From assembly GCA_965234725.1 (NCBI GenBank), contig CBDDUX010000067.1, forward strand, positions 1 through 39,070: 39,070 nucleotides of DNA, read 5' to 3'. A program made the translations under genes and the position numbers. Below the pieces are notes generated by a model, which was not told the origin of the DNA, ran no database searches, and was given only the letters and a program-made list of their open reading frames with translations. The stretch comes from Thermoplasmatota archaeon (lineage in GTDB: Archaea > Thermoplasmatota > Penumbrarchaeia > Penumbrarchaeales > Penumbrarchaeaceae). Shown here one piece after another: positions 78 to 37,626 of this stretch (position 1 is its first letter; every line of letters starts with the position of its first letter).

Positions 78-389
78 TCATGAGATCGAATCATTGAGGC
101 ATAGGTCCTTCTCTGTTAGTCCCAGGGTCTCGATACAAAAGGTCCTGATATCATCAACTGTCAATCCTTCCGGAAATTCGTCGATCTTGATGTGAAGAAT
201 TCCATCCTCGATACTATATGTCCCCTTTACCTCTCCACCAAATAATATGAACGGGATCTCAAATGAACCGTCATTGTAACCCATATTGATCCTTGCACCC
301 TGCTCCAATATCTGCTCCAGGGAAGTATTGTATCTGACCCCCATCTGAGGATCGATCGGTATCTGGAAGGTATTGTCATTTCCAAGCAT
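78..389 (-). CDS. Small acidic hypothetical protein (103 aa)
   Basis: ATG-initiated ORF with no competing ORF, globular-looking composition, and a TATA-like TTTATC about 25-30 nt upstream on the minus strand. No family recognised. Confidence 0.6.
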   Translation of the reverse strand: MLGNDNTFQIPIDPQMGVRYNTSLEQILEQGARINMGYNDGSFEIPFILFGGEVKGTYSIEDGILHIKIDEFPEGLTVDDIRTFCIETLGLTEKDLCLNDSIS

Positions 390-9208: not shown

Positions 9209-10437
9209 ATCCGACCCCCCTTCTTCATATGTTCCTCGGTCTCCAATAAAAGGACGGTGATATTGGATCCGGATCCTCCAACGTTATGGGCCAACCCGAC
9301 CTCTGGTTTCCTCCCAAGGCTTCTTTCAATGGGATATGGACTTTTTCCAGAAAGCTGTTGGAAGATCTCCCCTACCTGTCTGACACCTGTTGCTCCAACT
9401 GGATGTCCATCAGCTTTCAGTCCCCCACCCGTGTTGGTTATGAAAGTATGGCCTTTCCTCTCGTATGTGATATGACTCTCCTCCCCATGGGATTCAAAGG
9501 CCCTTTTCACCATCTCGGGTCCTTTTCCCCTTTCAGCCAATCCGAGGTCCTCGTATCCCATTACTTCCTGTATAATGTAGGCATCATGCATTTCAAAAAG
9601 ATCCACATCCTCAAGGGCCAGGGAGGTCCTTTGAAAAGCGATATCCTTTGCTTTCCTTGTCGCCCTGAGATCGGAAAGTGATCGTCTGCTATAGAGGCCA
9701 ATGGAATCTGTGCTCATTCCATAACCTGAAAGAAAGACGAATCTGTCTGTTATCTCTCTTGCTTTCTCTTCGGATGCAATGATCAATGCCGCAGCACCAT
9801 CGCTCACCGGGGAGCAGTCCAGAAGTCTGACAGGATCGGATATCACGGGGGCGTTCAGAACCATCTCCTGTGTTATCTGGTTCCGGAAATGTGCATGAGG
9901 GTTCTCCGAAGCATGCATATGGTTCTTCACAGAAATCAGTGTCATATCCTCATAATTTGCATTCTTGTTCTCATGGAGGTATCTCTGTGTCAGGATGGCG
10001 TTCAACGAGATGAAATCGAATTCATATAGACGTTCCCACTCGCTCGCTGCTGCCATGTAGGCTTTTCTGGCTGATCGGTCTGTTGCTTTTTCAGCTCCAC
10101 CAACAAGAACTAGGTCGCAGTCACCACTCTTGATGGCCCTAACAGCATTATAAACAGCAGCCCCACCGCTTGCACAGGCTGCTTCCACTCTTGTAATGGG
10201 GATGTCAAATCCCATCTCTTCAGCGAGATATGCCGAAAAATTTCCCTGATCGTTCATGATCTCGGGAACGAATGTTCCTATCACCATCTCGTCTATGTCC
10301 TCTCTCGAGATCTTCGCATCTCTTAAAGCGGCAATTCCCGCTTCTGCCACAAGAGAGATGAAGGACCGTTCGAAGAGCTCTCCGAATTTTGTCCTACCAG
10401 ATCCAATTACTACAACTTTTTTGAAATCAGAAGCCAT
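9205..10437 (-). CDS. Archaeal-type acetyl-CoA C-acetyltransferase (thiolase)
   Basis: Motifs EAACASGGAA (nucleophile Cys), CSPVSDGAAA, EMHDAY, GHPVGATG and HNVGGSG. Start placed at MASDFKKVV (10437), after a GGAG SD; the ORF track extends it to 10479. Confidence 0.92.
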   Translation of the reverse strand: MASDFKKVVVIGSGRTKFGELFERSFISLVAEAGIAALRDAKISREDIDEMVIGTFVPEIMNDQGNFSAYLAEEMGFDIPITRVEAACASGGAAVYNAVRAIKSGDCDLVLVGGAEKATDRSARKAYMAAASEWERLYEFDFISLNAILTQRYLHENKNANYEDMTLISVKNHMHASENPHAHFRNQITQEMVLNAPVISDPVRLLDCSPVSDGAAALIIASEEKAREITDRFVFLSGYGMSTDSIGLYSRRSLSDLRATRKAKDIAFQRTSLALEDVDLFEMHDAYIIQEVMGYEDLGLAERGKGPEMVKRAFESHGEESHITYERKGHTFITNTGGGLKADGHPVGATGVRQVGEIFQQLSGKSPYPIERSLGRKPEVGLAHNVGGSGSNITVLLLETEEHMKKGGRI

Positions 10438-10592
10438 TAATAAGTCTCCATATGTCTCTTTTTTTTTAGAATATGTCACATGTCAGTGATATGGGATAGA
10501 TAAAACTTACCATGTAACAAAGATAATAATTATCCCTCAAAAATTCTTTTTTCAGGTGAAATATTTTTTTAGGGGGATAACGATCATCACAT

Positions 10593-11753
10593 ATGGTCTC
10601 GGTAAAGGAAAGGACGGTCAAGGGAAAGAAATACCTCTACATATCCGCCACATCGTCATACAAAGGTCAGAAGAAGAGATTCGAGAAATCCCTGGGTCCT
10701 GTCGATTCCGATCCTAAGGAAATTGAGCATAAGACGGAGTTCTATTCTGACCTACTTGAACTTAAATCGGTTCTCTTCAAGATCTATCTTGAGGCCAAGG
10801 ACAAGGAATTCAAGTATCTCCCTCGTTTCTATTCGATCTACCTTTCAATGATCAGGAACTTCTATTCCCAGTTCCTTTCTGACCTGTATCCTTCTGAGCT
10901 GGAAAAATACAAGGAAGTACAGAATGTAAAGTATGTTCACCATACAACTGCGATGGAAGGAAATACCCTGACTCTGAGAGAAGCCGCCCTCATAATAGAA
11001 GACGGGATTGCACCAAAAGGAAAACAACTTAGGGAGATACACGAGGTTGAGAACTTCAAGAAGGTTCTCAGGTATCTCAGATCTTATAAAGGGGACGTCT
11101 CTCTCCCGTTTATCAAGAAGATCCATTATATGGTCCAGCAAAATATTGATGACGAGCAGGCCGGCAATCTCAGAAGGATAGAGGTGGGGGTCGTTGGTTC
11201 CAATTTCGAACCGCCTCCGGCCATATTCGTCGAGGATGAGATCAAAGAACTGGTAGAATGGTACAAGGATAATTCCGATCATCTGCACCCTTTCGAACTT
11301 GCAGGTATCTTTCATTACAGATTGGTCCAGATCCATCCTTTCGTAGATGGGAACGGGAGAGTGGCCAGAGAGCTTCTGAACTTCATCCTTGAGAGGAACG
11401 GGTATCCCCCTACTATATTGGAGGTGACCGATCGTGAGGATTATCTGAAGAGGCTCCAGAAAGCGGATGACGGTGATCCGGCTCCATTCCTTGAGCTTCT
11501 GGCGATCAAGATGATCACAGATTATGAGGATGTCATCATGTCATTTCAAAAGAGGGCCTTAAAAGATATAGAAACCCTGACAGACGGAGAGATGGCAGAG
11601 ATATTCCAGATGCTTGTATGGTTCATGCATTTGATGAGGGAGTTCGAGGTTGATATCCCTGCAGAAGCTAGGGAGAGGATCTCTTCGATCAAACGCTTCT
11701 TCGAGAGGGGAATGATCCATTCTGATCGAAATCAGATCATTCCAGAAACCTGA
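10593..11753 (+). CDS. Fic-domain protein (AMP transferase family)
   Basis: Canonical HPFVDGNGRVAR motif, upstream inhibitory-type TTAMEGN motif, and a basic N-terminal GKKYLY segment. Confidence 0.93.
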   Translation: MVSVKERTVKGKKYLYISATSSYKGQKKRFEKSLGPVDSDPKEIEHKTEFYSDLLELKSVLFKIYLEAKDKEFKYLPRFYSIYLSMIRNFYSQFLSDLYPSELEKYKEVQNVKYVHHTTAMEGNTLTLREAALIIEDGIAPKGKQLREIHEVENFKKVLRYLRSYKGDVSLPFIKKIHYMVQQNIDDEQAGNLRRIEVGVVGSNFEPPPAIFVEDEIKELVEWYKDNSDHLHPFELAGIFHYRLVQIHPFVDGNGRVARELLNFILERNGYPPTILEVTDREDYLKRLQKADDGDPAPFLELLAIKMITDYEDVIMSFQKRALKDIETLTDGEMAEIFQMLVWFMHLMREFEVDIPAEARERISSIKRFFERGMIHSDRNQIIPET

Positions 11754-11834: not shown

Positions 11835-12161
11835 CTATGCCCGGTGTTTCCTATACCAGGCTGGAAGACCGATGTACCTGTAGTGGTCCTCTATCTGTTT
11901 TGAATAGATCGAGGCATAGAACTTGTTAAACTCTCCAACATGGAGAAGTCCTTTCTTTGTTGGGACTATCTTGTAGGTCCTCTCATCCCTTTCTATTTCG
12001 ATATAACCCTCGGAACCAAGGTGGTCCAGTATCCTTTCTGTCATATTATGGTTAGATCTAATGTGATGCATAATCTCCGATTTTGAAAGACCTATTGTTG
12101 ATTCAAGAAGAAGAAGCTCCAGTTTGCTTTCAAGGTCCTTCTGCTGAGGATCGATACCCAT
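11835..12161 (-). CDS. Winged-helix DNA-binding protein (108 aa)
   Basis: wHTH pattern GLSKSEIMHHI...ILDHLGSEGYI...YKIVPTKKG. Start moved to MGIDPQ (12161) because the longer ORF (to 12314) overlaps the upstream gene. Confidence 0.75.
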   Translation of the reverse strand: MGIDPQQKDLESKLELLLLESTIGLSKSEIMHHIRSNHNMTERILDHLGSEGYIEIERDERTYKIVPTKKGLLHVGEFNKFYASIYSKQIEDHYRYIGLPAWYRKHRA

Positions 12162-12246
12162 GGCCGAAGCTAATAGATTGAGCACAATGCATGAATAAAG
12201 GTTCATGTCCTTGTAGCTCCTCTTCTCCACGGTAATTACACTCCTT

Positions 12247-13092
12247 TCAAGGAAGTACATTCGGAAGCTCGGGCACAAATGGAATGAACTCGTACTTTCC
12301 GGTAGGTAGTTCAACAGCTATCTGAAGATTGATCCTTTGGTTATTGTGGCCTTTTAGCCAGATCTTTCCTTCTATTATCTTATCATATACCTCATTATCA
12401 ATACCCGCATAACTTGATGCTCCTTTTATGATCATGACAACCCGATGAGGGTAAGCTCTACCATTGGCTGTGATATCATCCAGGTCCCTTACAATGTTCT
12501 TAAGATCATCCATGGTTGGAGACCTTTTATATTCTCTTAGATAGAGAGAATATCCCGGATAACCGATCTTGAACATTCTGTAAATTATTGATGGCTTCTT
12601 CTGGATGAATGCATCAAAATGATATCTGTTCCCTTTTCGACCAACTGCATAAGCATCCTTTCTCAGTATCTCGGGTCGATTCTTCAGCAATCTGGTAAAG
12701 GTCTTATTGTTCTCTTTTAGATATTCCAGAAACCTGTCTGTCTTGTTCTTGCCTTTGGGGATCGAGTATTCTGGTGGTCCTTCCCTCATCGCTTTGATGG
12801 CAGAATACCTGAATGTGGATTCCTTCAAGAACCTTCTAAGTAGTGAAAGTAATCTCGCTGTAATGATGCCGGTTACAAAAAGTGATGCCAGCACCATTAC
12901 CATGAAGAAATTACCCTGTGAAAGGACTGCCAGAAGCAGGATGAAATACAGTATGATCGAGAACCATACGAAATAAAGAGCGAATTTTGATAAGAACAGG
13001 ATCTTCTCCGATCGTTCGGTGATCTCCTCAGCAAGGTTGAACGTTCCGGAGATAGGGTCCTCGACTCCTCTGTACAGTTGCCATCTTTTCAT
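12247..13092 (-). CDS. Membrane protein (2 N-terminal TM helices) with a possible degenerate PD-(D/E)XK/Mrr-like domain
   Basis: Two hydrophobic helices at about aa 30-80, then GRKGNRYHFDAFI...LYLREYKRSPTMDDL, which resembles the restriction-endonuclease-like core. GGTGA SD upstream. The fold call is by eye. Confidence 0.7.
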   Translation of the reverse strand: MKRWQLYRGVEDPISGTFNLAEEITERSEKILFLSKFALYFVWFSIILYFILLLAVLSQGNFFMVMVLASLFVTGIITARLLSLLRRFLKESTFRYSAIKAMREGPPEYSIPKGKNKTDRFLEYLKENNKTFTRLLKNRPEILRKDAYAVGRKGNRYHFDAFIQKKPSIIYRMFKIGYPGYSLYLREYKRSPTMDDLKNIVRDLDDITANGRAYPHRVVMIIKGASSYAGIDNEVYDKIIEGKIWLKGHNNQRINLQIAVELPTGKYEFIPFVPELPNVLP

Positions 13093-24430: not shown

Positions 24431-25951
24431 TCAGAGATCGATATCGTATATGTTGGAGTATTTTTTCTTGAGGTAGTCGATGAAATGGTCCTCGTTGAGA
24501 GGTTCCCCTGTTACCTTCTTAACAAGGTCGTCAGCTGAATAGAGTTTTCCATATTGGTGAATATTCTCCCTCAACCACTTGAGAAGAGGCTGGAGATCTC
24601 CCTTTTCAATATGGGACCCAAGATCCATGATATCTCTTACTGCCGTATCATAGAATTGAGCCGAATAGAGATTTCCAAGTGAATATGTTGGGAAATAACC
24701 CACGACCCCCATGGCCCAGTGAATATCCTGCAGGCACCCCTGAGCATCATTTTCGATCTCCAGACCGAGGTACTTTTCATAGAGTTCGTTCCATGCTTGT
24801 GGGATCTCGGACACCTTCAACTTATCCTCCATCAGGTCCTTTTCGATCTCGAACCGAACCAGGATATGCATTGAATAGGTGACCTCGTCCGCCTCCACTC
24901 TTATTGGTGACAAACTGATATGGTTGATAGCCCTATGGAAATCATCGAGGTTCACATCCCTCATTGATGGAAAAGCAACCTGAAGGTCCGGGAAATAGGC
25001 CTTCCAGAAGTTCTCGGACCTTCCTACAATGTTTTCCCAGAGTCTTGATTGTGATTCATGGATCCCAAGGGAAATCGGTTCAGCTAGTGGTGTAAGGTAA
25101 TTTTCTTTCTTGAAACCCTGTTCATAAAGGGCATGTCCCGCTTCATGTATGGTAGAGAAGAGGCCGGGTCTAAGGTCATTCTCATCATATCTCAAGGTTA
25201 CCCTGACATCATCAAGAGATCCCGCAGTGAAGGGATGAGCCGACGTATCCACTCTGCCCCGTTCAAGATCATACCCCATTTTCTGCATGATGGCCGTGTA
25301 GAATTCTTTCTGTACACCTATGGGATAATTTCTCTTGAGAACATCCTGATCATCATTACTGCAAATGTCTGTGAGTCTGGATACAAGTGGCTTTAATTTT
25401 TCACCGAGATCATGGAATATTCCGGTCAATCTTTGACTTTTCATGTATGGTTCGAACTCATCAATAAGTGCGTCGTAGGGCGAATCCTCGTAACCAACAT
25501 GTTCAGCTACCTGCTTCTTCAGTGAAATTACCCTTTCAAGAACCTCTTTGAAAATTGAGAAATCAGACCTCTTCCTTGCCTTGACCCATACACCGGTTGC
25601 TACCGGTTCCAATCCGGAGAGTTCCCTTATGAGTGAACTTGGTATGGCCGCCGCCCTTGTGTGACTTCTAGTTATCTCTCTGACTATTGCTGCTTTTTCT
25701 CCTGTCAATTCAATCTTGGATAGATCATGAAGTAGTCCCTTCATCTCCTTTGATATGAGCCTTTCGTGTGCGATCCCAGAGATGAGCGATTGCTGTTCAC
25801 CTCTCATGTCAACGGAACCAGGCGGCATATACGTGTTCTGATCCCACATGAGAATGCTTCCTATCTGTCCCAAGCGGACTATATCCGAATACCTGAAGAC
25901 AAGTTCATTATAAGGATCCACATCCATTCCTCGAGGCTGTATAAATTTCAT
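24431..25951 (-). CDS. Carboxypeptidase, peptidase family M32
   Basis: Motifs HPF, DVRVT, HEAGHALYEQG, HESQSRLWEN, IRVEADE, GCLQDIHW and GYFPTY.LG. The true start may be 25927. Confidence 0.95.
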   Translation of the reverse strand: MKFIQPRGMDVDPYNELVFRYSDIVRLGQIGSILMWDQNTYMPPGSVDMRGEQQSLISGIAHERLISKEMKGLLHDLSKIELTGEKAAIVREITRSHTRAAAIPSSLIRELSGLEPVATGVWVKARKRSDFSIFKEVLERVISLKKQVAEHVGYEDSPYDALIDEFEPYMKSQRLTGIFHDLGEKLKPLVSRLTDICSNDDQDVLKRNYPIGVQKEFYTAIMQKMGYDLERGRVDTSAHPFTAGSLDDVRVTLRYDENDLRPGLFSTIHEAGHALYEQGFKKENYLTPLAEPISLGIHESQSRLWENIVGRSENFWKAYFPDLQVAFPSMRDVNLDDFHRAINHISLSPIRVEADEVTYSMHILVRFEIEKDLMEDKLKVSEIPQAWNELYEKYLGLEIENDAQGCLQDIHWAMGVVGYFPTYSLGNLYSAQFYDTAVRDIMDLGSHIEKGDLQPLLKWLRENIHQYGKLYSADDLVKKVTGEPLNEDHFIDYLKKKYSNIYDIDL

Positions 25952-27004: not shown

Positions 27005-30000
27005 TCAACCTATTTTTTCTGAGTGATCATCTTCTTGTGTCCCTTGAAGGGGACCTTTATTTTCTTTCCGATTTTTTAAGACCATCAAACCAAAGAATAC
27101 CAAGCAGATAATCAAGAAGAGACTTAAGATAGTCAACATTAAACCTACAGGACGTTGGTCCTCTCTTTCACTTCCTTCTCCATCCAGAGGTATATCAGTA
27201 GATGATTTCACTGTAATATTGAATGTTATCGATGTAATATCTTTTCCATCTGTTACACTTATTTCAATCGTATTATTTCCGATATCTTCAGGTCCAGGTT
27301 CCCAGGTCATAATCGATGTTGAACTGGAAAGGTCCACTCCATCTGGACTTTGGACTAATTCCAATACAAGAGCAGATTGATCAATCAAATCAGGGTCCAT
27401 TGTGCTCAATTCAATGGTCAATTTCTTTCCAACATCTATCTCCCAGTCACCTGGATCAGTGAGTGTGGGGGGCGTGTTCACATGGAAACTGTGGACTCCA
27501 TCTTGGCAGTAACCGGATGACCTTTGATCCTTTGGAACCACTGTCCAGAAGTACTCTTCTCCTTTGAGCAATATTTCAGGTTTATATTCTGTAATCACCG
27601 TTGACTCCAGGATCAAATGCTCTTCCTTCAATTCTTCTACTTCTACCCAGTTTGTTCCGATATATAGATCGAAGAGGACCTCCTCTCCTTCCGGATCGGC
27701 CCCCTCCCATTTCAATACGATATCAGATGATTTGTATGACTTTCCATGTTCCGGTGATAGTAGTCTTGCAGTAGGAGCCGGATCGGGAACAATGAACAGG
27801 TCGAAATCATGACGGATCAATACATTTCCATCCGAGGCCTGGACTGTAATTGTCGTGAAAAATGTATTGTTCTGGAGCATTGTCAAACCCTTTGTATCTG
27901 CTTCCCAGGAGATCTCTCCGGAGAATGGATCGATGAAGATCGAAGAATATGGGAAGGAACTGATCGAATATTCCAACACATCCATAGAGTCTTGATCGAA
28001 TGCTTCCATCTGGAAACTGAATTCCTCTCCTTCTCTGAGAGTAGTTCCGTTGAAAACTTTTTTCCATACTGGCTTGTCATTTGTATTTAATACAGTCAGT
28101 GTGAAATTGTGGAAATCGGTTCCCTCCTTTCCGTCCGAGATCGAAATATTCACAAAGTATGAACCTACATCCTCATTTCTTGGTATTCCAGAAAGCCTGC
28201 GGGTATCCTTATTGAACTCCAACCAATTGGCATTTGTCTTCATAGTCCAGTTCAAGCTATCTCCATCAGGATCATAAGCAGAATAACTAATGAGATAATA
28301 ATCATCTTCAATGGCCTCAATATCATCCAATGTGGAGATTGAGGGATCTCTATTGGTTTGATATATATTTAGGACAAATCTTGACCAATCCCAACCACCA
28401 TTTCCATCATTGACAGATACATTGATATGATATTCTCCAGTATGTTCGCTAGTTGGTGTTCCACTTAATATCCCAGTATGAGGGCCCATTTCAAGGAATG
28501 GGACTTTCGGCGAATAGGACCATGAAATTACACCCAGCCCATCCTGGTCTGAGTTATAATCCGAATAGTAGAATTCTCCCGTACTTATCTCCTCGATATC
28601 ATCGGTCAAAATCACTGGTGGTATATTGATTACAGTAAGAATGAATTCATGTCTATCAAAATGTCCCAGATCATCTGATATGTTGATCATTATTTGATAT
28701 TCACCAACGTGGGAATTTGTTGGAGTTCCCGAAAGGATTTTCTTATTGCTATTCCAGGTTAACCAGGAAGAAGCCGATCCAAGATCGATATCCCATTGTT
28801 GAGGCTCAATAATCCCTCTATAACTGTATTTTACTTCATAGAACTGGTTTTCTGTGGCCTCTTGATCATCTTCCTGGGGAAATAATGTAATATGATCTTG
28901 CACCAGGAGTTTAGAAAAGATGTTAGGACTCTTCCTTGAATAAACAGTAATATTCTTCCACGGTATCGAATCACATGTCGGATGCAGTGTATCTATACAA
29001 GATCCAAGTGTGAAATTCCCCCGATAATGGCCAGTATTCTTTCCAGTCTCTTTTAACATCAGAGGTAATTGAGACTCCGTCCCTTCTGTTTCGATGATAG
29101 CAAATGCCTGATCAATATGCGATGTATTCCCATCTATACCAATCAATTCAACGAATATCCTACCTCCTTTCAATGCCTTTGTGATCGGAGTGTCGAATGA
29201 ATTGTTAGGATAAAGCCTGATAGATGTAGTAGTTAGCTGTTCAGAAGCTTTATTAGTTGAAATGATAAACACTTTTCCTCGATTGTATCTACTTAATGTG
29301 TTGTCAAATTGTGGCATTCCGACCTTGATCTCTGGATAACCATCACCATTGATATCTCCAGCCATGGATAGTTCATTGAACCCAGCAGGAATATCATTCG
29401 TATCAGTCCCAAAGAATATGAAATCCGAGTCTGTTAAACTCATGTTCCCTTTCCAGTTTGTCGAGTTACCATTTATTACATATACATTCCCATCTTGGAT
29501 ATTATTGTAACTATGATAAGGTGCTCCTATCGCGATGTCATCATACCCATCGAGGTTCAGATCACCGACTATGGTCACAGATGTTCCTGCATTTTCAGTA
29601 TCAGATCCCAAATATATCCTATCAGCTGTATCTACATTGGTATTCTCATCAAATTCCGTTTTCTTTCCAAGGAAAAGATATACCTTTCCATTAAAATCAT
29701 CAGAGCGATTTGCTCCGATTAGAATATCATTGAATCCATCACCATTGATGTCTCCTCTCCCTCCAACCATGCTGCCTTGATCCTCTATTTTAGTGCATAG
29801 AAAGGATCCATTGCAATATGTTTCGATATTCCCCCCCTTTTCCCAACCTTTACTTCTCCCCAATAACAGGTAATTTTCCACTTTGGAAGAAATTTTTGAA
29901 TAATTGGATAAATAACGACTTCCAATAATCATATCATCGAATCCATCACCATTGATGTCACCAAGTCCGGTCCCAGTACCCGGCCAACCCAGCATCTCCA

Positions 30001-30772
30001 TCTGTTGTGAACCCTCATATGAGTAATGCTGTGAGCTCAAGACCTCATTATTGACCCATCCAATACTCCTTCCAAAAACGATGTAGACGATACCTGCATC
30101 AATCTTTCCCTCTGCATCATGGCCGTAGGCACCGATGATGAAATCATCATATGAATCATTATTTAGATCACCCACGCCAGTGGTTAACCATCCAGCTCCA
30201 TCACCCTGGTTTTCACCGATGAAAGAAGCATCAGCATTTGAGGTATTGATCTCCTTCTGCCAACCATCATCTTTTCCAAAGAAAAGGTACACCTTTCCTC
30301 TATCAATCTTTCCACCTGAGTTGAAATTTCCATCACACATCAATATATCATCAAATCCATCACCATTGATATCTCCTGCAATTGAACCAAAACCAAGTTT
30401 TGCCCCCCCTGGGGTTTCCATCACGAATTTCACATCTGCATTTGATACAGAATCATCCCTTTTCAATCCCACACCCCTCCCAAAGGTCAGAAAAACCAAA
30501 GAAGGATTTATTCCAGGTCCCATTGCATCAGCTATCACGTCATCAAAACCATCCCCATTGACATCTCCAGATCCAAGACTGAACCTTCCATAGGTCATAC
30601 TTCCGATATCACCTTCAATACTGCACCAGGCGTTTGACATTGGATTGATCTGTGTTGTGAATATTTTTTCGAATATATCATGAACCTCTTCCATATTTGT
30701 CTCATTAAGAGCAATAGAAATTGAGGATATTACTGATAGAGTTGCCACTATTAATCCTATATTCAATCTCAT
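27005..30772 (-). CDS. Surface protein with 7 FG-GAP (integrin-alpha-like) repeats, cadherin/Ig-like stalk and C-terminal TM helix
   Basis: Seven GD(V/I/L)NxDG(F/Y)xD-type repeats with G.VY.F.G strands, LSGTP...VG.Y.I.I.VSD Ig repeats, signal peptide and C-terminal TM helix. Confidence 0.93.
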   Translation of the reverse strand: MRLNIGLIVATLSVISSISIALNETNMEEVHDIFEKIFTTQINPMSNAWCSIEGDIGSMTYGRFSLGSGDVNGDGFDDVIADAMGPGINPSLVFLTFGRGVGLKRDDSVSNADVKFVMETPGGAKLGFGSIAGDINGDGFDDILMCDGNFNSGGKIDRGKVYLFFGKDDGWQKEINTSNADASFIGENQGDGAGWLTTGVGDLNNDSYDDFIIGAYGHDAEGKIDAGIVYIVFGRSIGWVNNEVLSSQHYSYEGSQQMEMLGWPGTGTGLGDINGDGFDDMIIGSRYLSNYSKISSKVENYLLLGRSKGWEKGGNIETYCNGSFLCTKIEDQGSMVGGRGDINGDGFNDILIGANRSDDFNGKVYLFLGKKTEFDENTNVDTADRIYLGSDTENAGTSVTIVGDLNLDGYDDIAIGAPYHSYNNIQDGNVYVINGNSTNWKGNMSLTDSDFIFFGTDTNDIPAGFNELSMAGDINGDGYPEIKVGMPQFDNTLSRYNRGKVFIISTNKASEQLTTTSIRLYPNNSFDTPITKALKGGRIFVELIGIDGNTSHIDQAFAIIETEGTESQLPLMLKETGKNTGHYRGNFTLGSCIDTLHPTCDSIPWKNITVYSRKSPNIFSKLLVQDHITLFPQEDDQEATENQFYEVKYSYRGIIEPQQWDIDLGSASSWLTWNSNKKILSGTPTNSHVGEYQIMINISDDLGHFDRHEFILTVINIPPVILTDDIEEISTGEFYYSDYNSDQDGLGVISWSYSPKVPFLEMGPHTGILSGTPTSEHTGEYHINVSVNDGNGGWDWSRFVLNIYQTNRDPSISTLDDIEAIEDDYYLISYSAYDPDGDSLNWTMKTNANWLEFNKDTRRLSGIPRNEDVGSYFVNISISDGKEGTDFHNFTLTVLNTNDKPVWKKVFNGTTLREGEEFSFQMEAFDQDSMDVLEYSISSFPYSSIFIDPFSGEISWEADTKGLTMLQNNTFFTTITVQASDGNVLIRHDFDLFIVPDPAPTARLLSPEHGKSYKSSDIVLKWEGADPEGEEVLFDLYIGTNWVEVEELKEEHLILESTVITEYKPEILLKGEEYFWTVVPKDQRSSGYCQDGVHSFHVNTPPTLTDPGDWEIDVGKKLTIELSTMDPDLIDQSALVLELVQSPDGVDLSSSTSIMTWEPGPEDIGNNTIEISVTDGKDITSITFNITVKSSTDIPLDGEGSEREDQRPVGLMLTILSLFLIICLVFFGLMVLKNRKENKGPLQGTQEDDHSEKIG

Positions 30773-30805: not shown

Positions 30806-31723
30806 TTATCCTGTCCATATGACTTTGAACATATTGCCCTCCAGTTGGATCAGACTGATCGTGTATTCTCCTCTCACCTTTGCCCGGGAATGCTTTGCAA
30901 ATTCAATTGCATCCTTGGTGAATCCTTTTGAGGATAATATTCCGATCTCGAGTGGATATTTTGACCAGTTCAAGACTTCTTCACAATCGGCTTTGAACTC
31001 ACCAATATCTTTGACCGTGACCTCTTTCTTATAATATTTCATAAGAATTACTTCGGTCCTGAAGAAGAACCTCAAGATCATCAGAACGAATATGGTAAGT
31101 ACAATGAACTCAAGGACTCCTAGTAGAATGAAATTGATGATCGAGTCAAATTGAGAATATATTATTGCTTCAACAAAGATGGTAGCGAGCAAGAACAGGA
31201 TCAATGCTATGGTGACAATGTAAATTAGCGAATTCTGATTGTTCTTGTAATAGATATCAAACGTATGTGATTTCCCATTTCTTTTTACAGTTTTCTTGAG
31301 GAATCCTTTGAAATCATTGATCCCAAGATAGAAAACATCGTCAAGCCTGTTGATCAGGTCCTCCAATATCTTATCCTTGTTAACAGGGAACATCTCCATC
31401 TTGACCTTGAACCTGATGGGTTTGATCTTGTCAGTGATCTTCATGAACGGTTTGAAGAACTTCAGGACTGATGTTAAAAGGATCAGACCAAAGAAGAATA
31501 CTGAAAAAGCACCGAAGATGCACAATTCATCCAGGATCCAGGTATCAGGATCGATCGCCCACAGAATAAATACCGCTGTGAAAAAAACAACCGATAGTCC
31601 CTCCATAAGTATGGAGAAAAGGAAAAATGGTATCTTGCTCGATATCTTAAAAAGGTCGTCTCCTAGCGTAGTTACCTTTGTGGTATCAAATGCTTGAAAG
31701 GAGTTGTCCTTCTTATCTGACAC
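30806..31723 (-). CDS. 4-TM membrane protein with an Mrr-like (PD-(D/E)XK) domain interrupted by a TM hairpin
   Basis: GKSHTFDIY, then two TM helices, then VILMKYYKKEVTVKDI...GILSSKGFTKDAIEFAK (Mrr-type S.xGFT..A motif). GTG start with TATA-like TTATAAT about 25-30 nt upstream. Confidence 0.78.
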   Translation of the reverse strand: MSDKKDNSFQAFDTTKVTTLGDDLFKISSKIPFFLFSILMEGLSVVFFTAVFILWAIDPDTWILDELCIFGAFSVFFFGLILLTSVLKFFKPFMKITDKIKPIRFKVKMEMFPVNKDKILEDLINRLDDVFYLGINDFKGFLKKTVKRNGKSHTFDIYYKNNQNSLIYIVTIALILFLLATIFVEAIIYSQFDSIINFILLGVLEFIVLTIFVLMILRFFFRTEVILMKYYKKEVTVKDIGEFKADCEEVLNWSKYPLEIGILSSKGFTKDAIEFAKHSRAKVRGEYTISLIQLEGNMFKVIWTG

Positions 31724-31750
31724 AGTAGTACATTACATTCCTGTATATTA

Positions 31751-31785
31751 TAAGGGGGTGTGGAATTCAATTCCACACCTCTTTA
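31751..31785. promoter_or_regulatory. Palindromic candidate operator between divergent promoters
   Basis: Perfect 11-1-11 inverted repeat GGTGTGGAATT-C-AATTCCACACC at 31757-31779, extending imperfectly to 31751-31785. Confidence 0.65.
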
Positions 31786-31866
31786 ATTGTGATACAATGG
31801 TGTTCACTATCATTCATTCCGGGTATATATCCCGATTAGGACAATATCCTTCTCGAGGTGTATCAA

Positions 31867-31956
31867 ATGAGCAACATCGGAATGAAAACAAACGGAAATG
31901 ACGCATGTGTATGGCTGAGAAATGTGAACAAATGCTTCCCTGTCTATAGCAGGTGA
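31867..31956 (+). CDS. Array peptide 1: MSNIGMKTNGNDACVWLRNVNKCFPVYSR (29 aa)
   Basis: GAGGTG SD at 31855-31860, TATA-like TATATAT at 31824-31830, and the shared C-terminal motif. Confidence 0.85.
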   Translation: MSNIGMKTNGNDACVWLRNVNKCFPVYSR

Positions 31957-31992
31957 ATGAACGGGAGATCATCGTTATAGGAGGGATGCAAA

Positions 31993-32067
31993 ATGAATGG
32001 AAAAGAAAATGTAAATGATGTCTGGCTGAGAAATGTGAACAAATCCTTCCCTGTTTATTACAGGTGA
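31993..32067 (+). CDS. Array peptide 2: MNGKENVNDVWLRNVNKSFPVYYR (24 aa)
   Basis: GGAGG SD about 8 nt upstream and the shared C-terminal motif. Confidence 0.85.
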   Translation: MNGKENVNDVWLRNVNKSFPVYYR

Positions 32068-32097
32068 AAGAAACCGAGGTAGTAAGGAGGGAAGAAA

Positions 32098-32187
32098 ATG
32101 AGCAATATGGGAATGAGATCATGTGGAAACGGCGCGGAACCCTGGATCAGGAACGTCAACAAGAGCTATCCGATCTACTTCAGGTGA
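32098..32187 (+). CDS. Array peptide 3: MSNMGMRSCGNGAEPWIRNVNKSYPIYFR (29 aa)
   Basis: AGGAGG SD. The motif is kept through synonymous codon changes, and the MSNxGM...GN N-terminus is shared with peptide 1. Confidence 0.85.
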   Translation: MSNMGMRSCGNGAEPWIRNVNKSYPIYFR

Positions 32188-32211
32188 TCGGAAAAGAAGG
32201 TGGTGAAAAAG

Positions 32212-32280
32212 ATGGAAATCTCGGGTTCGGAAAAATGGTTGAGGAACGTGAACAGATATTACCCTCTCTTCATGAGGTAG
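32212..32280 (+). CDS. Array peptide 4: MEISGSEKWLRNVNRYYPLFMR (22 aa)
   Basis: GGTGGTGA SD, shared C-terminal motif, TAG stop. Confidence 0.83.
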   Translation: MEISGSEKWLRNVNRYYPLFMR

Positions 32281-32307
32281 TATCGGTAACCAGCAGGAGG
32301 GAAGTAA

Positions 32308-32376
32308 ATGGAAGAAAACGTGTCAACGGTCTGCATGAGAAATCTCAGAAAAAATTATCCAGTATTTCCAAGGTAA
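32308..32376 (+). CDS. Array peptide 5 (divergent): MEENVSTVCMRNLRKNYPVFPR (22 aa)
   Basis: AGGAGG SD. RN....YPVF.R-stop falls in the same register as peptides 1-4. TAA stop. Confidence 0.75.
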   Translation: MEENVSTVCMRNLRKNYPVFPR

Positions 32377-32428
32377 TCAGGTTAAATATTCACTATCCAA
32401 TGTTATTCGAGGATGGATCCCAAAAAAG

Positions 32429-32497
32429 TGATCTCGATCGATCCTTCATGGAAGGGATGGAGGATCGATCGGATCATACAACTTATGATCATTTTTT
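32429..32497 (+). terminator. Double hairpin plus T-tract closing the peptide array
   Basis: CGATCGATCCTTCAT (32435-32449) pairs with ATGGAGGATCGATCG (32457-32471). It is followed by GATCATA-CAACT-TATGATC (32472-32490) and TTTTTT (32492-32497). Confidence 0.6.
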
Positions 32498-32535
32498 CGT
32501 TGATAATAATAAAACTTTTTTAAGGGGGTTGAAGA

Positions 32536-35500
32536 ATGAATAAGATCTTGTATTTAATTGCGGCCATTTCAATGATAACATTACCCTTTGGGGTATTGGA
32601 TCAGAATGCAGATAGCAGTAATGTTTTACAAACCGAACCCTGTCGAGGACTAAACGAATGGGATTCAAGTCATTCTATCTCCGAGGCTGTGACCGCTTCT
32701 TTCTTGGGCCAGAATAATGAGACAAAATCAGGATACTCAACATCAATCGTCGGTGATCTGGACGGTGATGGATATGACGATATTGCCATATCTGCAATCG
32801 AAAGCAATATCAGTTCAGGACACTCAGGTCAGGTGTATATATATTTTGGAAGAAAAACGGGATGGCAGTATAATATGTCCCTTCTTGATGCGGATGCGTC
32901 ATTTCACGGTGAACGAACTGGTGACAGGATCGGTACATCTGTATCCGGAGCGGGTGATGTAAACAGGGATGGATTCGAGGACTTACTCATTGGGACCCAT
33001 GCTTATCCCGGTGGGAATAATAAAGGAAAAACTTACCTATTTTTCGGAAAGCCAAAGGACCAGTGGAATATGGGTGTGAACATAAGCAGTTCCGATGCAT
33101 CATTTATTGGACAATCCCAGGGGGACATGGCGGGTGAGGTTTCTGGTGTGGGTGATGTCAACGATGATGGTTTCTCTGATTTCATGATAGGCGCATCGAG
33201 GCATGGATCCGGGAAAGGAATAAGTTATCTATTTTTTGGAAAAGATTCTGGATGGTCCAATGAGATGGGTGTCACAACAGCAAACGCATCTTACGTAGGG
33301 GAATCAGAGGGAGACATGTCAGGTTACAGGATTTGCGGTGTGGGGAATGTCAACCGGGATGATTACGATGATATTTTGATCAGCGCCCCTGGTAGAAATG
33401 AAAACCAGGGAAAGACCTATCTGGTCCTTGGAATGGAAACCGGTTGGTCAAAAAACAATCCCTTATCTGTAGCTAATGCTTCATTTATTGGTGAAGTTAA
33501 AGGGGATCGATCCGGGATGGCAATTTCCGGATGGGGTGATGCGAATGGTGATGGTATAGATGATATCCTCATTGGGGCGGGTTATAATGATGAGGGTGGT
33601 AAGGATTCGGGTCAATCATACCTGATCTTCGGAAGGCTCTATGGATGGAAGAAGGATATGTTACTTTCAGATTCTGATGCATCCTTCATAGGATCTCCAG
33701 GAAGTCTTTCAGGATGGGCATTATCAATATCAGGAGATATCAACAGTGATACATTGGATGACCTTGTCATTAGCGGTCCTGATTACATTATCGGGACGGA
33801 AAAGATTGGAATTGTCTATATGGTCTATGGCAGGGAATCCAATTGGAGCATGGACATGGACCTCGTAAATTCTAATGCAGTCTTTATCGGTGAGAATGTT
33901 TCAGATTCCTTCGGATATTCTCTATCAACAAGCGGAGATGTAAATGGTGATGGTAATGAAGATATCCTTATCGGAGCACCTTTAAATGATAAGGGTGGAC
34001 TGGATTCGGGTCAAACATATTTGGTCCTGGGAAAAGGTTTCTCCTGGAGGATGAATACACCTCTCTCTCTCGCTGATTCCTCTTTCGTAGGAGAAAATCC
34101 AAGAGATTTCTTTGGATATGAATGTGCTGTAGTTGGGGATGTAAATGGTGACGGATTCAATGATTGGGTAGTATGTGCATACCTTAATGACGAATCATAT
34201 GAGGATGCGGGCCAGGTATACCTATTTCTAGGGAGAGAAAATAATTGGGGACATGATTTTAACATATCCAATGCAGATGCTTCTTTCCTGGGAGAGAATC
34301 ATGGAGATAATATCGGTCCAATGTGTGGTTCTGGAGATGTTAATAATGACGGATTCGATGATTTCTTGATAAGTTCACCATGGAATGATCAAAGTGGGAC
34401 AAATGCAGGGAAAGTATACCTTATATTAGGTAAGAAGAACGGTTGGGAAATGGACACGCCTCTTTCAGAAGCTGATGCTTCCTTTTTAGGAGAGAACGCT
34501 GAAGATGAGGCAGGAATAGGGACCAGTATTCAAGGAGATGTAAACGGAGACGGATTCGATGATATTCTCATAGGTGCTCCATATAATGACGAAAGTATCA
34601 ACGATGCAGGAAAAACATATCTATTATTCGGAAAGGATGGAGGATGGGTTAACAATATTAGCCTTTCCCAGGCTGATGCATCTTATCTTGGAGTTAATTC
34701 GGGAGCATCATCAGGGATGACTCCATGCATTCAAGGAGATATAAATGGAGATGGATTTGATGACATCCTCATACCAAATCGTCCTGGTCTTGATTCACGG
34801 ATTGGTGAAGTATATTTGATTTTTGGAAAGAGTTTCGGATTTATGAAAAACAAGTCATTGTTATTGTCGGATGCTTCATTTATTGAAGAATTTCAGGCAG
34901 ATCGCTTTGGTGGAATGGAAGGTCCAGCTGGAGATATAAATGGTGATGGACTTGATGATATTTTAATAACTGCTGGGACAGCCACTAGTAATGGAAAAGC
35001 GACGGGAAAAGCTTATCTCTATTTTGGAAGGAGCTCCGGCTGGAAAATGAAGATCAATGTTTCTGAAGCAGATGTCACATTTATTGGGGAGAACGATGGT
35101 GATTATATCGTTGTAGCAACAGGAGATGGAGATCTTAATGATGACGGATATGACGATATTATCATTGGAGCTCCCTACAATAGTAATGCTGGGTATCTGT
35201 ATGGCAACACTTATGTTATCTTCGGACAACCTAGTGGTTATCCAAGGAATTATTCACTGAGCGAGGCGGATGCTTCTTTTGTGGGCTTGAGATATTATAA
35301 TTTGGCCGGAATGTCTTGTTATATTTTGGGAGATGTGAATAATGATGGATTCGATGACTTCTTTACAACTTCAATATTCAATAATAATGGAGGTTTATAT
35401 GAAGGGAAGGGATATCTTATATACGGTCGAAAATTTCTTGGAGCAAGACCACAGATCACTCTCAACAAGACCTACATTTCAAGTCAACTTGACGGCAATA

Positions 35501-37626
35501 GATCCATAAAGGGAGAGCTCGAGATCAAATGGGAGGCCTGGGATGAGGAGAGTGCGGATGATCTATCCATCTCAATTTTCTATAGACGCGGAGAAACTGG
35601 TTGGAAATTGATCGCAAACAATCTGGAAAACACTGGGTCCTATATCTGGAATACAAATAAACCTAGAGTGAAAGATGGATCCAAATATTATATCATGGTC
35701 AAGGCTGAAGATGAAAATGAACAGATCAGTTCTTCGGAATTGGATTTCAGTTTCAGGATCGATAATCCGGATCCTCCATCGATAAGGATATTATCTCCAG
35801 GTCTTGGAGAGATCATCACTGGCCAGTCAACGGTTGAATGGAGGGCGGAGGATGATGAGGACCAGGGAATAGACCTGAAAGTTGACCTTTTCTTCTCAGA
35901 AGATAGCGGTGAGAATTATACTCTCCTTGCTTCGGACCTTAAATATTCGGATTCTTTCACATATGATACATCCGATTATCCGGATGGCTATTATTATCGG
36001 TTCAAATTGACGGTCAGGGATACTTCCGGTCTTGAAACCAGTATCGAGACGATGAACATCCAGTTCCTCAATGATCCCAAGATAGAGATCCTTCTACCAA
36101 TGGAAGGCGATGTTATTTCAGAAATCTACAAGATCAGATGGATCGCCTCGGATCCAGGGGATTTCGATCCGGATCTTCTCGTATCTATATGGTTATCATG
36201 GGATATGGGTCAGAGTTATGATCTGGTAATGAAGGACCGTCTAAATACTGGTGAATACGAGATAGATACAACTGAATATCCAGATAGCAAGGAATGTATG
36301 CTGAAAATGGAGGTCAGTGATCCATCTGGGAAGAACCATACAGCAGTGTCAGATGTATTCACCATTCTGAATACAGATCCTCCGAAAGTAGTTTTCACAG
36401 GACCTCCAACAGGTGAGGTTTATTCCAAGACTATCAAATTAACCTGGAATGCTACAGATGATGAGGATGGTCCGGGAGCTCTTCTCTATTCATTGTATTA
36501 TCAATTCCATGGAGATGAGATGTGGTACCAACTTGAACACTTACAGCCAAATAACGGATTTCTCGATCTGGACACATTAAGCCTTGTAACAGGTGATGGG
36601 AAATATACCCTTATGATAAGGGTGCAGGATACCTATCTTGAGGTATCAGAACCCTCATATCTGGAGATAGAGGTCTATAATCCCGATTACCCCGAGATAA
36701 AATATCCGTTTGGTCCTTACTTCCCCATAAGAGATGGGATTGCCGATTTTGAATGGTATGCAACTGATCCTGATCCCGGAGAGGAAGATCAGCTTCTGGT
36801 TTGGTACTATGTATCCATCGATGGTGAAGAATGGACAACCATGGTGGATGGCATATTGAATGAAAACCAGCTATCCATGGATGTTTCCGGTCTTCAGGAT
36901 GATGAATATTTTGTCAAGATGAAGGTATCCGACGATCAGCCCGGTGAAAATGAGAGGTCTGTAGAGGTTGTCCTTGATCAGAAAATGGTTCTAAATAACC
37001 AAAATGATCCGCCGGAGGTGGAAGTTATTGAAGGTCCCAGCTCAGATGTGGAATATTCGAATGATATTACCTTCACATGGACTGGATCGGATCCTGATGG
37101 GGACGACATATCATATACACTATTTTATAGGCTAAAGGACAGCTCGAATTGGATACCAATACCAGGAGCTCAGGACATAAAAGAAACAACCTATACTTGG
37201 AACGTTTCCAAGTTAGATGAAGGATTTTATCAGGTGAAGATCGTTGGGAAGGAGGATTATATTGAGGAGCTTGAGAGTGAATGGATCTCCGAGGAGTTCT
37301 ATGTGAAACCAGTGAAACTTGATATTGGGAACGAGGATCGGGAGGTCACCGTGAATTACGGACTTCTCATAGGTATCGCAGCTGGATTCACAGTACTTGT
37401 AATGGTGATCGTATGGATACTTTTCCTTAATGCAAGGAAAAGGGAAACCAGTGAGATAGTGCATCCGGACGATCTTGATCCAAGTAATCAGGAAGGATCT
37501 AAGGAAGCAGTCCCAGATGAAATCAATGAAGGGGATCTGGATGAGGTTTTCACTCCACCTCCTGATCCATTAACCACTTTGGAGGGAACTCCACAGGATT
37601 CTGAGGGAGGTAACTTGGAGGAATGA
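32536..37626 (+). CDS. Surface protein with 14 FG-GAP repeats (probably two 7-bladed propellers), Ig-like stalk and C-terminal TM helix
   Basis: Fourteen G(D/N)xNxDGxxD-type repeats with ADASF.GE and G.TYL.FG, repeated N.DPP...I.W.A.D Ig-like units, signal peptide, TM helix and acidic tail. Confidence 0.93.
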   Translation: MNKILYLIAAISMITLPFGVLDQNADSSNVLQTEPCRGLNEWDSSHSISEAVTASFLGQNNETKSGYSTSIVGDLDGDGYDDIAISAIESNISSGHSGQVYIYFGRKTGWQYNMSLLDADASFHGERTGDRIGTSVSGAGDVNRDGFEDLLIGTHAYPGGNNKGKTYLFFGKPKDQWNMGVNISSSDASFIGQSQGDMAGEVSGVGDVNDDGFSDFMIGASRHGSGKGISYLFFGKDSGWSNEMGVTTANASYVGESEGDMSGYRICGVGNVNRDDYDDILISAPGRNENQGKTYLVLGMETGWSKNNPLSVANASFIGEVKGDRSGMAISGWGDANGDGIDDILIGAGYNDEGGKDSGQSYLIFGRLYGWKKDMLLSDSDASFIGSPGSLSGWALSISGDINSDTLDDLVISGPDYIIGTEKIGIVYMVYGRESNWSMDMDLVNSNAVFIGENVSDSFGYSLSTSGDVNGDGNEDILIGAPLNDKGGLDSGQTYLVLGKGFSWRMNTPLSLADSSFVGENPRDFFGYECAVVGDVNGDGFNDWVVCAYLNDESYEDAGQVYLFLGRENNWGHDFNISNADASFLGENHGDNIGPMCGSGDVNNDGFDDFLISSPWNDQSGTNAGKVYLILGKKNGWEMDTPLSEADASFLGENAEDEAGIGTSIQGDVNGDGFDDILIGAPYNDESINDAGKTYLLFGKDGGWVNNISLSQADASYLGVNSGASSGMTPCIQGDINGDGFDDILIPNRPGLDSRIGEVYLIFGKSFGFMKNKSLLLSDASFIEEFQADRFGGMEGPAGDINGDGLDDILITAGTATSNGKATGKAYLYFGRSSGWKMKINVSEADVTFIGENDGDYIVVATGDGDLNDDGYDDIIIGAPYNSNAGYLYGNTYVIFGQPSGYPRNYSLSEADASFVGLRYYNLAGMSCYILGDVNNDGFDDFFTTSIFNNNGGLYEGKGYLIYGRKFLGARPQITLNKTYISSQLDGNRSIKGELEIKWEAWDEESADDLSISIFYRRGETGWKLIANNLENTGSYIWNTNKPRVKDGSKYYIMVKAEDENEQISSSELDFSFRIDNPDPPSIRILSPGLGEIITGQSTVEWRAEDDEDQGIDLKVDLFFSEDSGENYTLLASDLKYSDSFTYDTSDYPDGYYYRFKLTVRDTSGLETSIETMNIQFLNDPKIEILLPMEGDVISEIYKIRWIASDPGDFDPDLLVSIWLSWDMGQSYDLVMKDRLNTGEYEIDTTEYPDSKECMLKMEVSDPSGKNHTAVSDVFTILNTDPPKVVFTGPPTGEVYSKTIKLTWNATDDEDGPGALLYSLYYQFHGDEMWYQLEHLQPNNGFLDLDTLSLVTGDGKYTLMIRVQDTYLEVSEPSYLEIEVYNPDYPEIKYPFGPYFPIRDGIADFEWYATDPDPGEEDQLLVWYYVSIDGEEWTTMVDGILNENQLSMDVSGLQDDEYFVKMKVSDDQPGENERSVEVVLDQKMVLNNQNDPPEVEVIEGPSSDVEYSNDITFTWTGSDPDGDDISYTLFYRLKDSSNWIPIPGAQDIKETTYTWNVSKLDEGFYQVKIVGKEDYIEELESEWISEEFYVKPVKLDIGNEDREVTVNYGLLIGIAAGFTVLVMVIVWILFLNARKRETSEIVHPDDLDPSNQEGSKEAVPDEINEGDLDEVFTPPPDPLTTLEGTPQDSEGGNLEE

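Follow-up and report, generated by a model that had tools for sequence, protein, structure and literature searches.

The 39,070-nt stretch of DNA considered here (the window) is an entire contig (CBDDUX010000067.1) from the genome of a Thermoplasmatota archaeon (3.54 Mb, 97.7% complete), and the sequencing runs containing it are mostly labelled as marine-sediment metagenomes. It holds, head-to-head, a gene for a 305-aa membrane protein and an array of five very short open reading frames (ORFs; 22–29 aa), together with a small winged helix-turn-helix (wHTH) gene downstream of the membrane gene. As judged by comparison with related genomes, wHTH gene, membrane gene and peptide array are the three conserved parts of a lineage-restricted accessory cassette of Thermoplasmatota.

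A conserved divergent unit

For comparison we used a set of 41 related genomes and a wider set of 401 genomes sampled from the phylum. The membrane gene occurs in 4/41 relatives, namely the window's own genome (G000), a second genome of the same genus (G001; loci L019 and L021) and two genomes of another genus of the same family (G021, locus L018; G023, locus L020), and the wHTH gene was found in exactly these four. With a metagenome contig (L026) added, the downstream side of the membrane gene can be read in five loci and its upstream side in four (G000, G001, G021 and L026); the G023 contig stops inside the gene. In all four of the latter, the array diverges from the membrane gene across the same palindrome and two TATA boxes. 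The wHTH gene lies downstream of the membrane gene in 5/5 loci, convergent with it at a gap of 0 nt in G021, G023 and L026, and with one FG-GAP gene in between in G000 and G001. The coordinates of these features in the window are collected in Table 1.

Searches for the peptides gave a similarly narrow picture. A model built from five peptides produced strong matches in only 3/41 relatives, and a model of 17 peptides found arrays in 3/401 genomes of the phylum (G000, G001 and G021), besides one weak singleton inside a 446-aa frame. The spread is patchy, with two of the five genomes of the window's genus and two of the seven of the second genus being concerned. Neither plasmid nor phage collections gave a match in tblastn searches, and a family scan found no mobile-element genes among the proteins of the window.

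An earlier reading of the window, made from its letters only (the original prediction), had proposed that the two arms are co-regulated, and this is borne out by the existence of one conserved divergent unit whose palindrome is kept in all four assessable loci. Arrays in unrelated neighbourhoods, or a palindrome that decays between genomes, would have spoken against it; what we found are arrays beside the membrane gene in 4/4 loci and the palindrome in 4/4. Peptides, membrane gene and wHTH gene were also expected to occur together with the FG-GAP genes across genomes, which holds for the first three, but for the FG-GAP genes in one genus only.

Table 1. Features of the cassette and of its surroundings in the window (coordinates of peptide genes include the stop codons)
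Feature	Position	Strand	Basis or remark
wHTH gene, 101 aa	26684-26989	+	AF2 model and Foldseek
Giant gene with FG-GAP repeats	27005-30772	-	E 1.9e-37
Four-helix membrane protein gene, 305 aa, GTG start	30806-31723	-	ORF
TATA box of membrane gene, TATATTATAA	31744-31753	-	~21-30 nt upstream of the GTG start, near-leaderless
Perfect 11-1-11 palindrome, GGTGTGGAATT-C-AATTCCACACC	31757-31779		candidate operator, abuts BRE/TATA of the membrane-gene promoter
Smaller palindrome, ATTGT-GAT-ACAAT	31786-31798		sequence
Smaller palindrome around the peptide TATA box, CGGGTATATATCCCG	31820-31834		sequence
TATA box of peptide array, TATATAT	31824-31830	+	preceded by conserved GGG
Peptide gene 1, 29 aa, C-terminus WLRNVNKCFPVYSR-stop	31867-31956	+	G001 orthologue 86% identical, same array position
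Peptide gene 2, 24 aa	31993-32067	+	SD-led ORF, motif, array-position match in G001
Peptide gene 3, 29 aa	32098-32187	+	matches G001 position 3 at 83% identity
Peptide gene 4, 22 aa	32212-32280	+	SD-led ORF, motif, array-position match in G001
Peptide gene 5, 22 aa, most divergent, C-terminus CMRNLRKNYPVFPR-stop	32308-32376	+	SD-led ORF, motif, array-position match in G001
Terminal AGG codons of peptide genes 1 to 5	31951-31953, 32062-32064, 32182-32184, 32275-32277, 32371-32373	+	sequence
Hairpin with 15-nt arms (32435-32471), then T6 run (32492-32497)	32435-32497	+	inverted repeat and sequence; probable transcript end
Giant gene with FG-GAP repeats	32536-37626	+	E 1e-73
Related pair, both genes	11835-13092	-	
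Related pair, membrane protein gene, 281 aa	12247-13092	-	hhalign against family profile
Related pair, HTH_45 winged-helix gene	11835-12314	-	E 2.8e-36 to partner family
Fic/DOC-domain gene	10593-11753	+	adjoins the related pair

The promoter gap and its palindrome

A gap of about 140 nt with two outward-facing TATA boxes and three palindromes, next to a gene for a protein with four transmembrane (TM) helices, had been described, and all of these are in place, the gap measuring 143 nt between the start of the membrane gene (31723) and that of peptide gene 1 (31867). The main palindrome sits between the two TATA boxes, about 45 nt upstream of that of the array, and abuts the transcription factor B recognition element (BRE) and TATA box of the membrane gene. 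No other perfect palindrome in the 39-kb window has arms of ≥ 11 nt with a loop of ≤ 3 nt; 30 mononucleotide shuffles contained 0.033 such palindromes on average and never more than 1. Nor does a second exact copy of it exist in the 3.5-Mb genome. The best near-match elsewhere in the genome (C4:8740, 3 mismatches), considered as a second copy of the operator, was rejected as it lies inside a 464-aa ORF.

Conservation separates the palindromes. GGGGTGTGGAATT and the TC.ACAC arm of the main palindrome are invariant in 4/4 loci, as is GGGT.TATA at the promoter of the array, and a TATA-like block stands at the equivalent place of the membrane gene in 4/4 aligned loci. Since they form invariant blocks in all four alignable loci, the main palindrome and both TATA boxes are more than chance features. 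The sequences of the two smaller ones, in contrast, are not palindromic in G001, G021 and L026, so that only the main one of the three withstood the comparison. A scan of 31600–32600 against Rfam returned only two sub-threshold matches to miRNA models.

The peptide genes

Each of the five ORFs of the array has its own Shine-Dalgarno (SD) site of the GGAGG/GAGGTG/GGTGG type at the usual distance. Their products align over the last 14 residues, W-[LI]-R-N-V-N-K-x-[FY]-P-x-[YF]-x-R, directly followed by the stop codon. Further arrays hold five peptides in G001, four in G021 and three in L026, where a fourth is cut by the contig end, and across all arrays (22–31 aa) the consensus reads W-[LIM]-R-N-V-N-[KR]-x-[FY]-P-x-[YF]-x-R. 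The N-terminus is variable and the C-terminus conserved; R, N, P and the C-terminal R are invariant in 17 typical peptides. The array of G021 ends with an SD-led ORF of 45 codons (L018 7557–7694, + strand), whose C-terminus, ...LRLLNMNGPRWAR-stop, faintly resembles the peptide core and which may be a divergent fifth member.

The pattern of substitutions is that of protein-coding genes. In 18 aligned cores, mean variability at codon positions 1, 2 and 3 is 0.17, 0.20 and 0.32, respectively, and the third positions of the codons for the invariant Arg, Asn and Pro vary freely, which is the signature of selection on the protein. Going by this codon evidence, the peptides are real coding genes under protein-level selection. 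Moreover, 5/5 peptides of the window have their best match in G001 at the same array position (50–86% identity), which implies that the paralogues are old and individually maintained rather than the outcome of a recent amplification. A strain contig of about 95% identity (2,079 nt, run X2) spans the whole of this stretch; its indels add up to 6 nt within peptide 1 (in the variable half), to 1 nt in a spacer and to 3 nt after the array.

All peptides are hydrophilic and basic, with grand average of hydropathy (GRAVY) values between –1.27 and –0.21 (17/17) and net charges of +2 to +4, and none has a signal sequence or a hydrophobic segment. Pfam and NCBIfam held no meaningful family for the five peptides at E ≤ 10, a search of the ESM Atlas with a 31-aa peptide returned only unnamed clusters of 20–22-aa proteins, and a six-frame scan of the window's own genome located no further copy of the motif.

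A further constraint seems to act on the last codon. The terminal Arg is encoded by AGG in 18/18 peptides (those of the window and of the L018, L019 and L026 arrays), whereas the internal invariant Arg is split about evenly between AGA and AGG, and long ORFs ending in Arg use AGA more often than AGG (47 vs. 29). A rare-codon effect is ruled out, since AGG is the commonest Arg codon of the genome (48%). The uniform terminal AGG against mixed usage elsewhere thus suggests an extra constraint at the nucleotide level, at the AGG-T(A/G)(A/G) stop junction. A link of the C-terminal Arg to the M32 carboxypeptidase gene at 24431–25951 was dropped, because G001 has a Kelch-repeat gene in that place.

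Behind the array, the hairpin and T6 run probably mark the end of its transcript, as judged by their sequence; a T-run follows the arrays of G001 and G021 as well. The FG-GAP gene downstream in the window has its own TATA-like and SD signals after the hairpin and T6 run.

The membrane protein

A Kyte-Doolittle scan and an AlphaFold2 (AF2) model both place two TM hairpins in the 305-aa protein, at about residues 31–89 and 166–220. The outside loops are only 4–5 residues long and the inside loops rich in Lys and Arg, i.e., they follow the positive-inside pattern, and two acidic residues within the membrane helices, E185 and E205, are conserved (alignment A2). The family is tiny: a search of 5.8 billion proteins gave 10 clusters, none below 56% identity, and a full HMMER pass over 1.84 billion representatives gave 23 at E ≤ 0.001. 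In G001, the gene is split over two contig ends (C31 and C60; residues 1–133 and 109–305), which is most simply an assembly break inside one gene and not two genes.

Sequence searches did not place this family. Pfam and NCBIfam gave no family at E ≤ 10, PADLOC (library of 2023) and PHROGs gave nothing for the protein or its relatives, of which five were run against PADLOC, at E ≤ 0.01, and the family profile found nothing below E 0.6 in the Protein Data Bank (PDB). In the AF2 model (predicted local distance difference test score, pLDDT, 73–91 in the soluble blocks), residues 110–160 and 221–305 form one domain of the order alpha-beta-beta-beta-alpha-beta, so that the second TM hairpin splits a nuclease-like fold between beta-2 and beta-3. 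Its best structural match is AF1548 (1y88_A; VIA-align Z 10.3, root-mean-square deviation 3.7 over 109 residues, model 117..301). NucS (8.5), Can2 (8.2), Rpb5 (8.0) and Card1 (7.7) follow, with Cdn1 and R.BspD6I also within Z 7.3–8.5 (residues ~113–305), a range to be read with caution, as best Z values of 7–8 are common and interleaved Z-8 rows are bare helical hairpins. Foldseek likewise gave MspJI as the best match (E 8.7e-3, probability 0.99), besides Rpb5, EndoMS, SfsA and AF1548; no Foldseek match reached E ≤ 0.001. Defence nucleases, i.e., MspJI, Can2, Card1, Cdn1 and NucC, are among the structural neighbours.

Some distant family members have no second hairpin, and their domain is contiguous. 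One of them, P0030, matches Mrr_cat below the threshold (E 0.0028; 18.2 bits at a cut-off of 21), and ESM Atlas neighbours with Mrr_cat score 0.80–0.87, which is below 0.9 and makes them leads only. In a 22-sequence alignment (A3), the beta-2 Asp (D156) is D or E in 19/22 and the Lys or Arg of beta-3 is kept in 21/22, but the acid position of the ExK motif, two residues before the latter, is hydrophobic in 22/22. Canonical nuclease activity is consequently doubtful. As all 22 sequences have an acid at position 110, a variant catalytic site is conceivable. The label "Mrr-like" given by the original prediction is, on the strength of the model (AF1548 and the Foldseek matches), right at the level of the fold only; a Pfam match is missing, the ExK motif is incomplete and family membership is not reached.

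The winged-helix gene as candidate regulator

Orthologues of the wHTH protein are 77–91% identical across the carrier relatives, and only 16 clusters of its family, none less than 62% identical, exist among 5.8 billion proteins. No HTH model of Pfam or NCBIfam matched at E ≤ 10, and PADLOC returned only LmuC (E 0.023). The AF2 model (pLDDT 71) contains helices at residues 12–28, 36–41, 49–66 and 84–100 and strands at 69–74 and 77–82, i.e., a winged helix-turn-helix with a C-terminal helix, which is the PadR/MarR type of fold. Consistently, Foldseek aligned it with PadR-like proteins, AF1382, the centromere-binding AspA and MarR (1xma, 2qvo, 3l7w, 4rs8, 3elk and 5dym; TMq 0.56–0.68, the top ones 0.62–0.68; probability 1.00, best E 1.3e-3). 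That this gene could encode a regulator of the locus had been suggested before. By its fold, its restriction to the genomes with the membrane gene and its constant place beside the cassette, it is a very good candidate.

Neighbouring genes

In the window, both arms of the divergent unit run on into a giant FG-GAP gene, as had been noted. FG-GAP genes flank the cassette only in the window's genus (G000 and G001). In the second genus they are absent from the unit; here, wHTH and membrane genes adjoin each other directly, and behind the array no gene runs in its direction (G021 has a T-run as well as a convergent gene there). Tuning of adhesin expression by the peptides, which had been offered as one function, is therefore unlikely to be the core of the system, and by this comparison the FG-GAP genes are a genus-specific neighbourhood outside the cassette. 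Giant surface proteins are unusually numerous on the contig (470–7759, 16053–20807, 27005–30772 and 32536–37626), where they include two NosD/beta-helix proteins (a C-terminal DnaJ domain being present in one), an S8 subtilase carrying PKD domains and the two FG-GAP proteins, and the FG-GAP neighbours may merely reflect this surface-protein island.

The neighbours across four loci comprise FG-GAP proteins and a Kelch protein, a PAS histidine kinase, a metallo-beta-lactamase-fold protein and hydrogenase-like subunits. In G021 and G023, a gene for a 658-aa PAS/PAS histidine kinase is divergent from the wHTH gene (L018 3600–5576 and L020 8477–10450, both on the - strand); as a sensory input to the cassette it is conceivable from its position in these two related genomes. 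Farther away in the window (7760–10479, - strand), a thiolase gene adjoins a gene with weak, sub-threshold matches to ACP_syn_III_C and zf-ChsH2 (rubredoxin-like zinc ribbon). This may be the archaeal arrangement of acetoacetyl-CoA thiolase, HMG-CoA synthase and DUF35, which would agree with an archaeal host.

A wider class of membrane and winged-helix pairs

Outside the four carriers, the family profile of the membrane protein gave weak matches at 10 places in other genomes. Six of these matched the C-terminal domain (translated), and five neighbourhoods were examined, leaving out L035 and the four matches to hydrophobic regions. In 5/5, all from other Thermoplasmatota genomes, a membrane protein with a similar C-terminal domain is followed by an HTH_45 winged-helix gene. 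One such pair, paralogous to the genes of the cassette, lies in the window itself (Table 1); its membrane protein combines an N-terminal TM hairpin with a C-terminal domain resembling restriction endonucleases (REases) and matches the family profile with an hhalign probability of 78% (E 1.9e-5; A3 vs. P0053). All members of this type are annotated as "hypothetical". The recurrent pairing argues that the two proteins are functionally tied. Going by these gene neighbourhoods, the combination of an REase-fold protein tethered to the membrane and a small winged-helix protein recurs in archaea and is undescribed; the peptide array is a feature of one branch.

Interpretation and alternatives

We tentatively favour, at a probability that falls slightly short of even, the reading that a regulator-controlled divergent promoter drives basic cytoplasmic peptides which act together with the membrane protein. 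A dimer of the wHTH protein would bind the conserved palindrome abutting the membrane-gene promoter and thereby set the expression of both divergent promoters. Lacking a signal sequence and any hydrophobic stretch, the leaderless, hydrophilic peptides would probably stay on the cytoplasmic side, as their GRAVY and charge suggest. There, they might be modulators, antidotes or ligands of the nuclease-fold domain that is tethered to the membrane. Operator binding, peptide location and peptide action are all inferred steps.

Several observations weigh against this reading. The five related pairs have no SD-led peptide arrays in their flanks (up to 1.5 kb), meaning that the two proteins can do without them. 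Conservation of the acids E185 and E205 within the membrane helices would also suit a protein that exports basic peptides or serves them as a channel. Upstream of the wHTH genes the palindrome has no conserved copy, so that it is co-occurrence which links the regulator to the operator. Finally, the carriers of the cassette are few (four genomes and a small number of metagenome fragments) and related to one another, so that the co-occurrence counts overstate independence.

A bolder form of the favoured reading would make this the first archaeal cassette in which unmodified ribosomal micro-peptides are the dedicated partner of a membrane-tethered, catalytically remodelled REase-fold protein. Five non-redundant basic peptides would here gate, neutralise or be sensed by a membrane effector under a PadR-like repressor, and the cassette would be one branch of a wider, yet undescribed class of archaeal two-gene switches in which a membrane REase-fold protein is paired with a winged-helix protein. 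We hold this larger claim to be doubtful.

Export of the peptides, as multi-component antimicrobials or signals, with the wHTH protein as regulator and the membrane protein serving for export, immunity or reception, is rather unlikely. Four to five tandem, SD-led, leaderless genes for cationic peptides of 22–31 aa beside a membrane protein and an HTH regulator recall loci of multi-peptide leaderless bacteriocins or peptide pheromones. Position-wise conservation of the paralogues is what a multi-component product would lead one to expect, and the patchy distribution among close relatives and the acids in the membrane helices would fit as well. However, the uniformly negative GRAVY values stand against +0.4 to +0.7 for the peptides of aureocin A70 and garvicin KS in the table of a review (PMC6131525). 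None of the loci contains a signal peptide, a transporter gene or a tetratricopeptide repeat (TPR) or Rgg-type receptor, and it is not evident what a nuclease-fold domain would do in export. With outside loops of only 4–5 residues, the membrane protein would also be a poor sensor of the outside. It is unlikely, too, that the cassette is a conflict module of the toxin-antitoxin or anti-virus kind, with the nuclease-fold protein as effector or toxin, the wHTH protein as controller or antitoxin and the peptides as neutralisers or triggers. Its patchy distribution and the different neighbourhoods in the two genera, the defence nucleases among the structural neighbours and the Fic/DOC gene adjoining the paralogous pair would all suit such a module. 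Yet no component matches a PADLOC model at E ≤ 0.01, the plasmid and phage searches and the scan for mobile-element genes came back empty, and the hydrophobic ExK position in 22/22 sequences makes nuclease activity doubtful.

Two further explanations concern the peptides themselves. As precursors of peptides that are ribosomally synthesised and post-translationally modified (RiPPs) they would be processed by enzymes encoded elsewhere, e.g., by cross-linking at two aromatic-x-Arg triads. Tandem short genes look like precursor genes, the invariant R, N, P and C-terminal R and the triads W-L-R and Y/F-x-R would suit recognition by an enzyme, and triads of this kind recall the three-residue cyclophane peptides. 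We nevertheless regard this as very unlikely, given that no radical-SAM, YcaO, P450, peptidase or transporter gene, nor any other modifying enzyme, adjoins the array in four loci, and that a variable N-terminus with a conserved C-terminus is the reverse of most RiPPs. Most improbable of all is a role as cis-acting leader or arrest peptides tuning the downstream FG-GAP adhesin gene. Conservation is indeed concentrated in the last 14 codons before the stop, the terminal Arg is always AGG despite the mixed internal usage and a genomic share of 48%, and an FG-GAP gene does follow the array in G000 and G001. But a TnaC-like leader is a single upstream ORF, and here four or five independent ORFs each have their own strong SD site. 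A hairpin and T-run precede the FG-GAP gene, which has promoter and SD signals of its own, and behind the G021 array there is no co-directional gene to be tuned.

Taken together, the observations of the original prediction are confirmed and its interpretation is partly supported. Genes of 22–31 codons escape routine annotation, and very few small-peptide systems are known in archaea. The locus is clean, conserved and experimentally tractable, with a unique operator-like palindrome, a candidate regulator, a new family of membrane proteins whose nuclease fold is split and five individually conserved peptides. If the peptides were ligands or antidotes, the cassette would represent a new type of peptide-controlled membrane module and give a first handle on the archaeal membrane REase-like and winged-helix pairs, for which no function has been described. 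In the case of export, it would be a candidate for signalling or antagonism by ribosomal peptides in sediment Thermoplasmatota.

Comparison with known systems

Searches of Pfam, NCBIfam, PADLOC, PHROGs, Rfam and the literature (the latter judged from titles and the openings of abstracts) brought up no described equivalent of the cassette. The paralogous pairs of Thermoplasmatota share with it the N-terminal TM hairpin, the REase-like C-terminal domain and the neighbouring small winged-helix gene (5/5), but differ in having co-directional, operon-like genes, no second TM hairpin and no peptide array in the flanks.

The soluble domain of the membrane protein has the same core fold as the PD-(D/E)xK nucleases of the Mrr/AF1548 type (1y88; Mrr_cat, PF04471), with the beta-2 D/E and the beta-3 K/R mostly kept. 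Unlike them, it is interrupted by a TM hairpin between beta-2 and beta-3 and tethered by another, has lost the ExK acid to a hydrophobic residue in 22/22 sequences and has no Pfam match even at E 10. The wHTH protein shares its length of about 100 aa, three helices, a beta-wing and a C-terminal helix with regulators of the PadR/MarR type (1xma, 3l7w, 5dym, TA0346 3elk, AF1382 2qvo and AspA 4rs8). Further points in common are its position beside a membrane-protein gene and the presence of a palindromic candidate operator. It differs in that no PadR, MarR or other HTH model of Pfam matches and that its family is so small.

With regard to layout, the Rgg-SHP and RRNPP cassettes of Bacillota also set a short peptide gene divergent from its partner gene, the conserved C-terminal part of the peptide being likely the active one. 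Here, however, a TPR or Rgg receptor is missing, the precursors are neither hydrophobic nor equipped with a signal, and the membrane partner exposes almost no extracellular surface.

Leaderless bacteriocin loci (aureocin A70, garvicin KS and the cereucins) resemble the cassette in their three to five tandem genes for cationic leaderless peptides of about 30 aa, a membrane protein and an HTH regulator (PMC6131525). Aureocin A70 is described as consisting of four peptides of 30–31 aa with a charge of +4 or +5, accompanied by the integral-membrane immunity protein AurI and the HTH regulator AurR (PMC6131525). Tandem leaderless cationic genes are thus common to both, with peptides of 22–31 aa here as against about 27–44 aa there. 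Hydrophobic or amphipathic, membrane-active peptides of positive GRAVY and a dedicated transporter, which belong to the bacteriocin pattern, are not found, the value being negative in 17/17 peptides and the loci containing no transporter. Hydrophilic, proline-containing peptides, the lack of an ATP-binding cassette (ABC) transporter, an archaeal host and a nuclease-fold membrane protein set our cassette apart. The component superfamilies, i.e., the winged helix and the PD-(D/E)xK fold, are known, and the layout recalls bacterial cassettes of peptides, membrane protein and regulator; novelty lies in the peptide family, in the nuclease fold that is split and tethered to the membrane, and in how the two are combined.

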